The notes: generated from the letters alone by a model not told the origin. Positions 16,483-17,290 are shown, numbered from the stretch's first letter. The stretch is 64,000 nt of DNA from Escherichia coli (GCF_003018115.1 NZ_CP027457.1); one strand, 5' to 3'. Numbers and translations are program-made.

Positions 16483-16824
16483 TTAAGTGCTCGTACCTCC
16501 GCAGTCCAGGAACAAGTCTGGCTGGTAGCTGTAAACAGACTTCGTACATACCGCTCTGCAATAAATCCCCGTACCACAGGCCTCACAGAACTTCTTCCCG
16601 GGAAAAAGCCTCCCGCACATCACACAATGCCACTCCAGCACGACCGGTAATGGCGATAAAAACATCGCCATATCCTCAATGTAAGGGTGGGACGTCTCCG
16701 GATTCAGCACCACACAGGCCGCCTTCTGTTGCGCACTCAGGGCATGTAAATCATGCTCACAAACCACGCCCCCTGAGCATCTGTCTGCAGAATCAACCGG
16801 CCATGACAGGAAAGGCAGAAACAA
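16483..16824 (-). CDS. Cys-rich hypothetical protein (possible zinc-ribbon); may be the 3' part of a frameshifted gene
   Basis: 113-aa ORF with several CxxC pairs (CVMCG, CEACG). Confidence 0.3.
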   Translation of the reverse strand: MFLPFLSWPVDSADRCSGGVVCEHDLHALSAQQKAACVVLNPETSHPYIEDMAMFLSPLPVVLEWHCVMCGRLFPGKKFCEACGTGIYCRAVCTKSVYSYQPDLFLDCGGTST

Positions 16825-16906
16825 TGCCGGATATTTCTGCTGAGCGCAGAGTCAGCAATGATAATGTGCTCACCCGGCGTGATCCCCAGCCCCGTTTTTA
16901 TACCGT

Positions 16907-17290
16907 TCATTCTGCTACCCCCTCCTCACTGAGGCGCCCGGTCTGGCAGTGTGTGCAGTACCGCTCCCCATAATAATCGTGGTGACATTGTCTGCAGTAC
17001 CAGCTGGCTTTACGTACTACGGGTAAGGCATCCGGGACGAATTGCTGCAGACGTTTAATCAACCGTATTTCTCTGCGTTCCGGCCTGACATAAGGACATT
17101 GCTGCGCGTGCTCCGTCAGCCCGTCGTCAGTGTGTTCAAACCAGGGACGTTCAGTGTCGTATTGCGGGTGGTATCTGAGTGCACTGCCGCAAAGGTGGCA
17201 GGTGTAGCTATCGTAAGGTGCAGTCTGTGCGGTACGGGCACCGGTCAGACGTCCGTTGCCATCAAGTGCGAGAAAAGATTTTGCGTACAT
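16907..17290 (-). CDS. Cys-rich hypothetical protein (possible zinc-finger)
   Basis: 127-aa ORF with CHLCG, CRQCH and CTHCQ motifs; 82 bp upstream of, and in a different frame from, the next Cys-rich ORF. Confidence 0.35.
   Translation of the reverse strand: MYAKSFLALDGNGRLTGARTAQTAPYDSYTCHLCGSALRYHPQYDTERPWFEHTDDGLTEHAQQCPYVRPERREIRLIKRLQQFVPDALPVVRKASWYCRQCHHDYYGERYCTHCQTGRLSEEGVAE

Follow-up and report, generated by a model that had tools for sequence, protein, structure and literature searches.

Tandem zinc-ribbon genes and the frameshift in gene 2

The minus strand of the window (the whole stretch of 64,000 nucleotides of Escherichia coli DNA that was analysed) was found, with high confidence, to carry two tandem paralogous zinc-ribbon genes, of which gene 1 (ZnR1) is intact and gene 2 (ZnR2) has been broken by a duplication of the dinucleotide TG. 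Gene 2 is inactivated, its product ending after native residue 50 (followed by seven aberrant residues), before the invariant histidine and the later ligands. Gene 1 is complete on its own and is the sole gene of the pair still able to give a full-length protein here. The gene structure of the pair is already known from public annotation, which records an intact and a frameshifted copy; in the identical RefSeq record NZ_CP027310.1 (E. coli 2014C-4135, 100%), PGAP annotates one intact and one 'frameshifted' zinc ribbon protein. The finding in the window is in itself that of a routine pseudogene in a cryptic island, correctly annotated in RefSeq. The features of the pair are as follows.

16907..17290, minus: ORF of 127 aa with an ATG start; gene 1 (ZnR1), intact 'putative zinc ribbon protein' WP_050866911.1 (RefSeq CDS C6N22_RS15830)
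16483..16910, minus: gene 2 (ZnR2), 428-nt frameshifted pseudogene of a paralogous 141-aa DUF7828 + Zn_ribbon_11 protein (RefSeq C6N22_RS15835, 'frameshifted')
16737..16910, minus: bridging ORF of 57 aa with an ATG start, in the third frame; N-terminal fragment of gene 2 (50 native residues, M1-F50, then 7 out-of-frame residues and a stop)
16483..16824, minus: ORF of 113 aa with a TTG start, which is merely the first possible start codon
about 16483..16757, minus: native part of the 113-aa ORF, namely its last 91 residues only (EHDL...GGTST)
16758..16761, minus: lesion, a 2-bp TG duplication (TG -> TGTG), placed by alignment to an intact allele
16907..16910, minus: ATGA overlap of the gene 1 stop and the gene 2 start, from the sequence
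16921..16927, minus: GAGGAGG Shine-Dalgarno-like sequence, 10 nt 5' of the gene 2 ATG and inside the end of gene 1, read from the sequence

The original prediction had described two cysteine-rich ORFs of 127 and 113 aa with CxxC pairs on the same strand, and both are present. The separation of 82 bp that it gave (16825..16906) and the difference in frame were borne out by the ORF list and its coordinates, the 127-, 113- and 57-aa ORFs all occupying different frames (offsets 1 and 2 relative to 17290). The 127-aa ORF is 5.5% cysteine (7 Cys, three CxxC) and the 113-aa ORF 8.8% (10 Cys, two CxxC). Across the window's 78 ORFs of 100 aa or more, the mean is 2.2% and the 95th percentile 4.6%, and only four of these ORFs hold two or more CxxC pairs. 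These cysteine-rich ORFs are not a product of chance, as their Pfam matches are highly significant: DUF7828 (E 5e-31) and Zn_ribbon_11 (E 1e-7) for the 127-aa ORF and Zn_ribbon_11 (E 5e-15) for the 113-aa ORF. The third-frame sequence bridging the gap, which had been taken as coding-like, proved to be real coding sequence, the 57-aa ORF matching DUF7828 with an E value of 2e-10.

Gene 1 spans the DUF7828 profile from end to end (positions 1-87 of 87) and then Zn_ribbon_11, scoring 106.6 bits (cut-off 25.7) and 31.8 bits (cut-off 24), respectively. It has its own stop codon, and its length equals that of hundreds of homologues (127-140 aa). The same two domains are divided between the fragments of gene 2. 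The bridging ORF covers DUF7828 positions 2-50, and the 113-aa ORF covers positions 48-86 together with the complete Zn_ribbon_11 domain (positions 1-36), the first 22 residues of the latter ORF being an out-of-frame reading of the N-terminal half of gene 2. When the fragments were scanned separately, DUF7828 scored 40.7 bits for the N-terminal and 24.5 bits for the C-terminal one (cut-off 25.7), with the C-terminal ORF scoring 55.4 bits for Zn_ribbon_11 (cut-off 24).

Pairwise alignment with the intact allele of E. coli strain 48 identified the lesion as the only indel in 831 columns, the window reading GGTTTGTGAGC where intact alleles read GGTTTGAGC. It falls within the codons of the invariant W-F-E-H motif, so that in the actual gene 2 the frameshift splits CxxC..WF from EH and all downstream residues. 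Removal of the two nucleotides gives back an ORF of 141 aa in which all family-invariant residues are kept. Gene 1 and the repaired gene 2 share 31% identity over 81 aa (E 7e-10), and the two genes are regarded, from comparison of their sequences, as old paralogues rather than a recent duplication.

Organisation of the pair in related genomes

In strain 48, which is 94% identical, both genes are intact (127 and 141 aa) with the ATGA overlap, and the gene 2 orthologue measures 426 nt. The order of Gp2-like gene, ZnR1 (127-130 aa) and ZnR2 (141 aa), with both zinc-ribbon genes intact, was found in strains 48, SCU-387, 13E0767 and JNE082640. As annotated, the two genes overlap by 4 nt in 48, 13E0767 and JNE082640 and by 13 nt in SCU-387 and in Salmonella, where the overlapping pair encodes 135 and 132 aa; a divergent metagenomic locus also holds an overlapping pair (105 and 154 aa). 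Two intact overlapping genes are thus the normal state of the pair in the loci compared, and the ATGA overlap suggests translational coupling of genes 1 and 2. Module-like DNA was detected in 3826 of 5426 complete E. coli genomes (approximately 70%), with a median of two places per genome.

The earlier reading, in which the 127- and 113-aa ORFs are pieces of one bigger zinc-finger gene, is hardly tenable. The two ORFs are adjacent, cysteine-rich, on the same strand and bridged by a third-frame ORF, all of which would suit such a gene. Against this, the 127-aa ORF already has both domains in full and stops at the same place as its homologues, while the bridging ORF has its own ATG preceded by GAGGAGG and aligns to the N-terminus of the domain rather than to a linker. 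Relatives are moreover annotated as two genes in all four other E. coli genomes and in Salmonella, so that the homologues show two separate small genes in the same organisation. No fused protein of approximately 270 aa was seen among the word-index matches listed (the best 120 of 329 for one subfamily and all 103 for the other), the longest of which has 211 aa; the profile search returned one representative of 238 aa (P0279) with two matched stretches. A larger gene composed of the 127- and 113-aa ORFs is accordingly refuted by the domain layout and by the intact homologues. What stands of the original suggestion of a single disrupted zinc-finger gene is that a frameshifted gene does exist, although the 127-aa ORF is no part of it.

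Origin of the frameshift

The exact gene 1 protein is recorded on more than a hundred contigs, from which ten draft assemblies were retrieved and compared. The TG insertion was present in all ten of these independent assemblies, and it is therefore an inherited mutation of one E. coli island lineage, apparently a recent one, rather than a sequencing error. Among these assemblies the pair differs by two SNPs only, one at 16642 in gene 2, which is synonymous in the repaired frame, and one at 17033 in gene 1.

Two explanations under which gene 2 would still be functional were weighed, and both are very improbable. If the insertion were a sequencing or assembly artefact of this genome, gene 2 would really be intact; a 36-nt probe over the insertion does match this record alone among the 5426 complete E. 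coli genomes, and the same assembly has another frameshifted pseudogene nearby (LutC/YkgG). However, the identical insertion recurs in drafts derived from different samples (10/10), and the lesion is a dinucleotide duplication and not a homopolymer-length error. The other explanation is that full-length ZnR2 is still produced by programmed ribosomal frameshifting or through phase-variable reversion, as TG x2 is a short tandem repeat that might in principle revert by slippage and gene 2 past the lesion has so far gained a single SNP, a synonymous one. Programmed frameshifting is unlikely because, by inspection, TGG-TTT-GTG offers no slippery heptamer of the X-XXY-YYZ type and the relatives examined are all read in a single frame. 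As for a phase switch, two dinucleotide copies lie far under the repeat numbers of known contingency loci, and the OFF state was found in 11 of 11 sequences of the lineage. The preferred reading is hence retained, namely that the mutation is inherited and gene 2 is not expressed as a full-length protein.

Protein family and predicted zinc sites

Both genes belong to the family combining DUF7828 (PF25165) with Zn_ribbon_11 (PF11682), annotated as 'putative zinc ribbon protein' (e.g. WP_001013320.1). At 90% identity, word-index searches returned 329 clusters for one subfamily and 103 for the other, and a profile search of 1.84 billion representative proteins returned 279 relatives at 50% identity, none of them in a larger multidomain context. 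Named sources are Enterobacterales, comprising Escherichia, Shigella, Salmonella, Citrobacter, Klebsiella, Enterobacter, Serratia and Edwardsiella.

DUF7828 was matched by 51 of 51 diverse family members, among them the repaired 141-aa gene 2. Across these 51 homologues C31, C34, F51, H53, C65 and C99 are invariant, and W97, C102, G108, C112, C115 and G118 are conserved in at least 90%. The site motifs are CxxC...WFEH...C for DUF7828 and WxCxxC...GxxxCxxCxTG for Zn_ribbon_11, and the ligand set (CxxC, WFEH, C, WxCxxC, G, CxxCxTG) is complete in gene 1 and in the repaired gene 2. This conservation fits two predicted zinc sites. In gene 1 the N-terminal one, a C-C-H-C finger in DUF7828, would be formed by C31, C34, H53 and C65, and the C-terminal one, a C4 ribbon, by C99, C102, C112 and C115. 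An AF2 model of gene 1 was obtained with a pLDDT of 90.4 and a pTM of 0.78; no structural neighbour of this confident model was found, and a sequence-profile search of the PDB gave no solved structure of a relative, with insignificant zinc-ribbon matches only.

Comparison with the family as a whole showed the same architecture, length, Cys/His ligands, tandem overlap and place after a Gp2-like gene, the difference being that the second copy in the window is a frameshifted pseudogene. Searches of NCBIfam, PADLOC and PHROGs gave no match for either zinc-ribbon protein, and no PADLOC family was reached at E <= 0.1 by gene 1, the repaired gene 2 or the neighbouring Gp2-like protein. Among the papers searched by name, there was no mention of DUF7828 or Zn_ribbon_11 and only incidental mention of yfjJ, yagK and Gp2.

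The C-terminal WxCxxC-x9-CxxC is similar to generic C4 zinc ribbons such as those of RPB9/TFIIS, RanBP2-type zinc fingers and ribosomal L37ae. Weak profile matches to RPB9 (E 0.08) and to the ZRANB2 RanBP2 finger (E 0.15) were obtained, none of them significant; they explain the evidently spurious database names 'RNA polymerase beta subunit' and 'L37AE' carried by some entries. The N-terminal part has a pattern in common with CoiA_N (PF25164), namely CxxC ... aromatic-F-x-H ... C. CoiA_N has been described as a small putative zinc finger ahead of the PD-(D/E)XK D-loop nuclease domain in the competence protein CoiA (10.1101/2024.02.06.579203). Of the 51 family members, 11 gave CoiA_N matches below threshold and in register with CxxC...WFEH, the best having an E value of 6.9e-5 and 22.7 bits against a cut-off of 26.3, with CoiA_N being absent from the Pfam matches listed for the window proteins at E <= 1. 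Unlike CoiA, the window proteins stand alone at approximately 130 aa and have an extra C-terminal zinc ribbon; the nuclease domain (PF06054) was not matched, the 127-141 aa being filled by the two zinc domains.

Gp2-like neighbour and island context

The pair lies within an island whose other features are listed below.

17661..18254, minus: 'inovirus-type Gp2' / YagK-YfjJ-like protein of 197 aa (RefSeq; weak Pfam matches to REP_ORF2-G2P and YagK_YfjJ_C)
19569..21404, minus: orphan cargo gene of 611 aa, between AlpA/DUF3987 and the Gp2-like gene
21505..21792: AlpA, island backbone
21764..23293: DUF3987 gene, island backbone
23463..24680, minus: tyrosine integrase, island boundary, from annotation

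The zinc-ribbon loci examined were from the window, four further E. coli genomes, Salmonella and a Citrobacter-type island, besides three that are divergent (metagenomic or draft). In all of them a Gp2-like/YagK-YfjJ homologue was found on the same strand, at most about 1.1 kb upstream, with 17-63% identity to that of the window. The Gp2-like protein of the window and these homologues share HxH (HUH) and SYLxK motifs, with an RGRPR (AT-hook-like) tail usually present at the C-terminus, and by these motifs they look like HUH Rep-like proteins. Beyond the zinc-ribbon genes there is often an AlpA gene near, followed by changing cargo and an integrase; the cargo beyond the pair varies wholly and includes Dpd, methylase/SNF2/MmeI-like, SMEK/CTD10 and WYL genes. 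The 611-aa ORF of the window matched nothing in Pfam or PADLOC. Neither a tRNA nor an Rfam family was found within the island, and a promoter and terminator scan performed no better than on shuffled sequence.

The island of the window has the same backbone of integrase, AlpA, DUF3987 and Gp2-like genes as CP4-57 of E. coli K-12 (intA, alpA, yfjI, yfjJ). CP4-57 is without a zinc-ribbon homologue and has AbpAB and RnlAB at the equivalent place after yfjJ, whereas zinc-ribbon genes are added in many other such islands. Inovirus Gp2-like and AlpA genes have been listed among the probable core functions of widespread genomic islands (preprint 10.1101/2024.08.29.610337).

Several variations on this arrangement were observed. 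In Salmonella (locus L004), the Gp2-like copy upstream of the pair is itself truncated by a stop codon. The Citrobacter-type island (L008-L012) carries at 4300-8400 genes for Gp2-like, AlpA, 108-aa, 177-aa, zinc-ribbon, Gp2-like and zinc-ribbon proteins, and this iterated module directly adjoins a Dpd (7-deazaguanine DNA modification) cluster. The 177-aa protein has a 35%-identical relative beside the Salmonella pair, and it may be a third conserved partner of the module.

Possible roles of the pair

Synteny and motif similarity tentatively point to the pair being part of the conserved backbone of CP4-57-like AlpA/tyrosine-integrase islands, in which the zinc-ribbon protein would be a small accessory factor that binds nucleic acid and/or the Rep-like protein and so helps to control island replication, excision or gene expression. 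This backbone role, although it is the reading put forward here, is possible rather than probable. One member of each subfamily probably acts with the other, as the genes overlap and are apparently co-translated. Certain observations qualify this proposal. The zinc-ribbon proteins are near-neutral (pI 7.0 and 6.4), which is untypical of DNA binders and counts against a nucleic-acid role. Zinc-ribbon genes also occur singly, and a heteromer is therefore not obligatory; the loss of gene 2 in a whole lineage further indicates that this gene is dispensable there.

A more specific form of the proposal, which has to be called doubtful, is that DUF7828/zinc-ribbon proteins are dedicated partners of the YagK/YfjJ HUH Rep-like proteins, and that members of the two subfamilies, both ancient, may combine into a heteromer. 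With the Rep-like protein, they would constitute a replication, mobilisation or regulatory switch of AlpA-type islands, the N-terminal finger being a stand-alone relative of the DNA-structure-recognising finger of CoiA.

The site beside variable defence cargo would suit a cargo or defence-related role just as well. In that case the pair would be cargo engaged in conflicts with phages or with other mobile elements, either by acting as a small factor for or against defence or by sensing or regulating the defence systems next to it. Such a role would agree with the place of the genes at the edge of variable cargo (Dpd, methylase/SNF2/MmeI-type and SMEK/CTD10-type) and with the occurrence of AbpAB and RnlAB at the equivalent position of K-12 CP4-57. 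It is nevertheless unlikely, given that there is no PADLOC match and that the genes stay beside the Gp2-like gene although entirely different cargo lies beyond from one island to the next; that about 70% of E. coli genomes have them, often more than once, also fits backbone better than cargo. The rest of the probability falls to roles that are neither of the backbone/Rep-accessory kind nor related to conflict.

The interest of the pair lies in the family to which it belongs, a small one with two predicted zinc sites. It is common, as about 70% of the complete E. coli genomes carry it, and tightly linked to YagK/YfjJ Rep-like genes, which lie where AlpA-type islands border on their defence and virulence cargo. 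If the partner reading were true, these proteins would belong to a switch of very common Enterobacterales islands that carry much variable defence and virulence cargo. The pair is a cheap candidate for the study of island replication, excision or cargo regulation.

Flanking repeat and nearby decay

In strain 48 the pair is followed by a YagK/YfjJ-domain gene, of which only the first 19 codons can be recognised in the window, downstream of the pair at 16237-16293 (minus strand), with 84% identity. As only this remnant is left, the downstream gene has been lost or replaced in the island variant of the window, beside a tandem repeat. The repeat has a unit of 8 bp and lies at 16297-16340, about 140 nt downstream of gene 2, with + strand units of GCGAATCA and GAATCAGC. 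Its number varies, with 0 to 11 extra units among ten otherwise near-identical assemblies. With other E. coli alleles the alignment does not start until 16371, and the 8-bp repeat is therefore peculiar to this island variant. After the repeat, at about 16344-16362, comes a short hairpin (CGGTGCG-CTTT-CGCACCG).

Further decay in the window is recorded by RefSeq as a frameshifted LutC/YkgG gene, a partial IS66 transposase and a partial autotransporter, at approximately 8600-9130 and 13400-14400 (3116883-3117406 and 3111606-3112582 of the record). The start of the window is occupied by a CdiB/CdiA contact-dependent inhibition locus.
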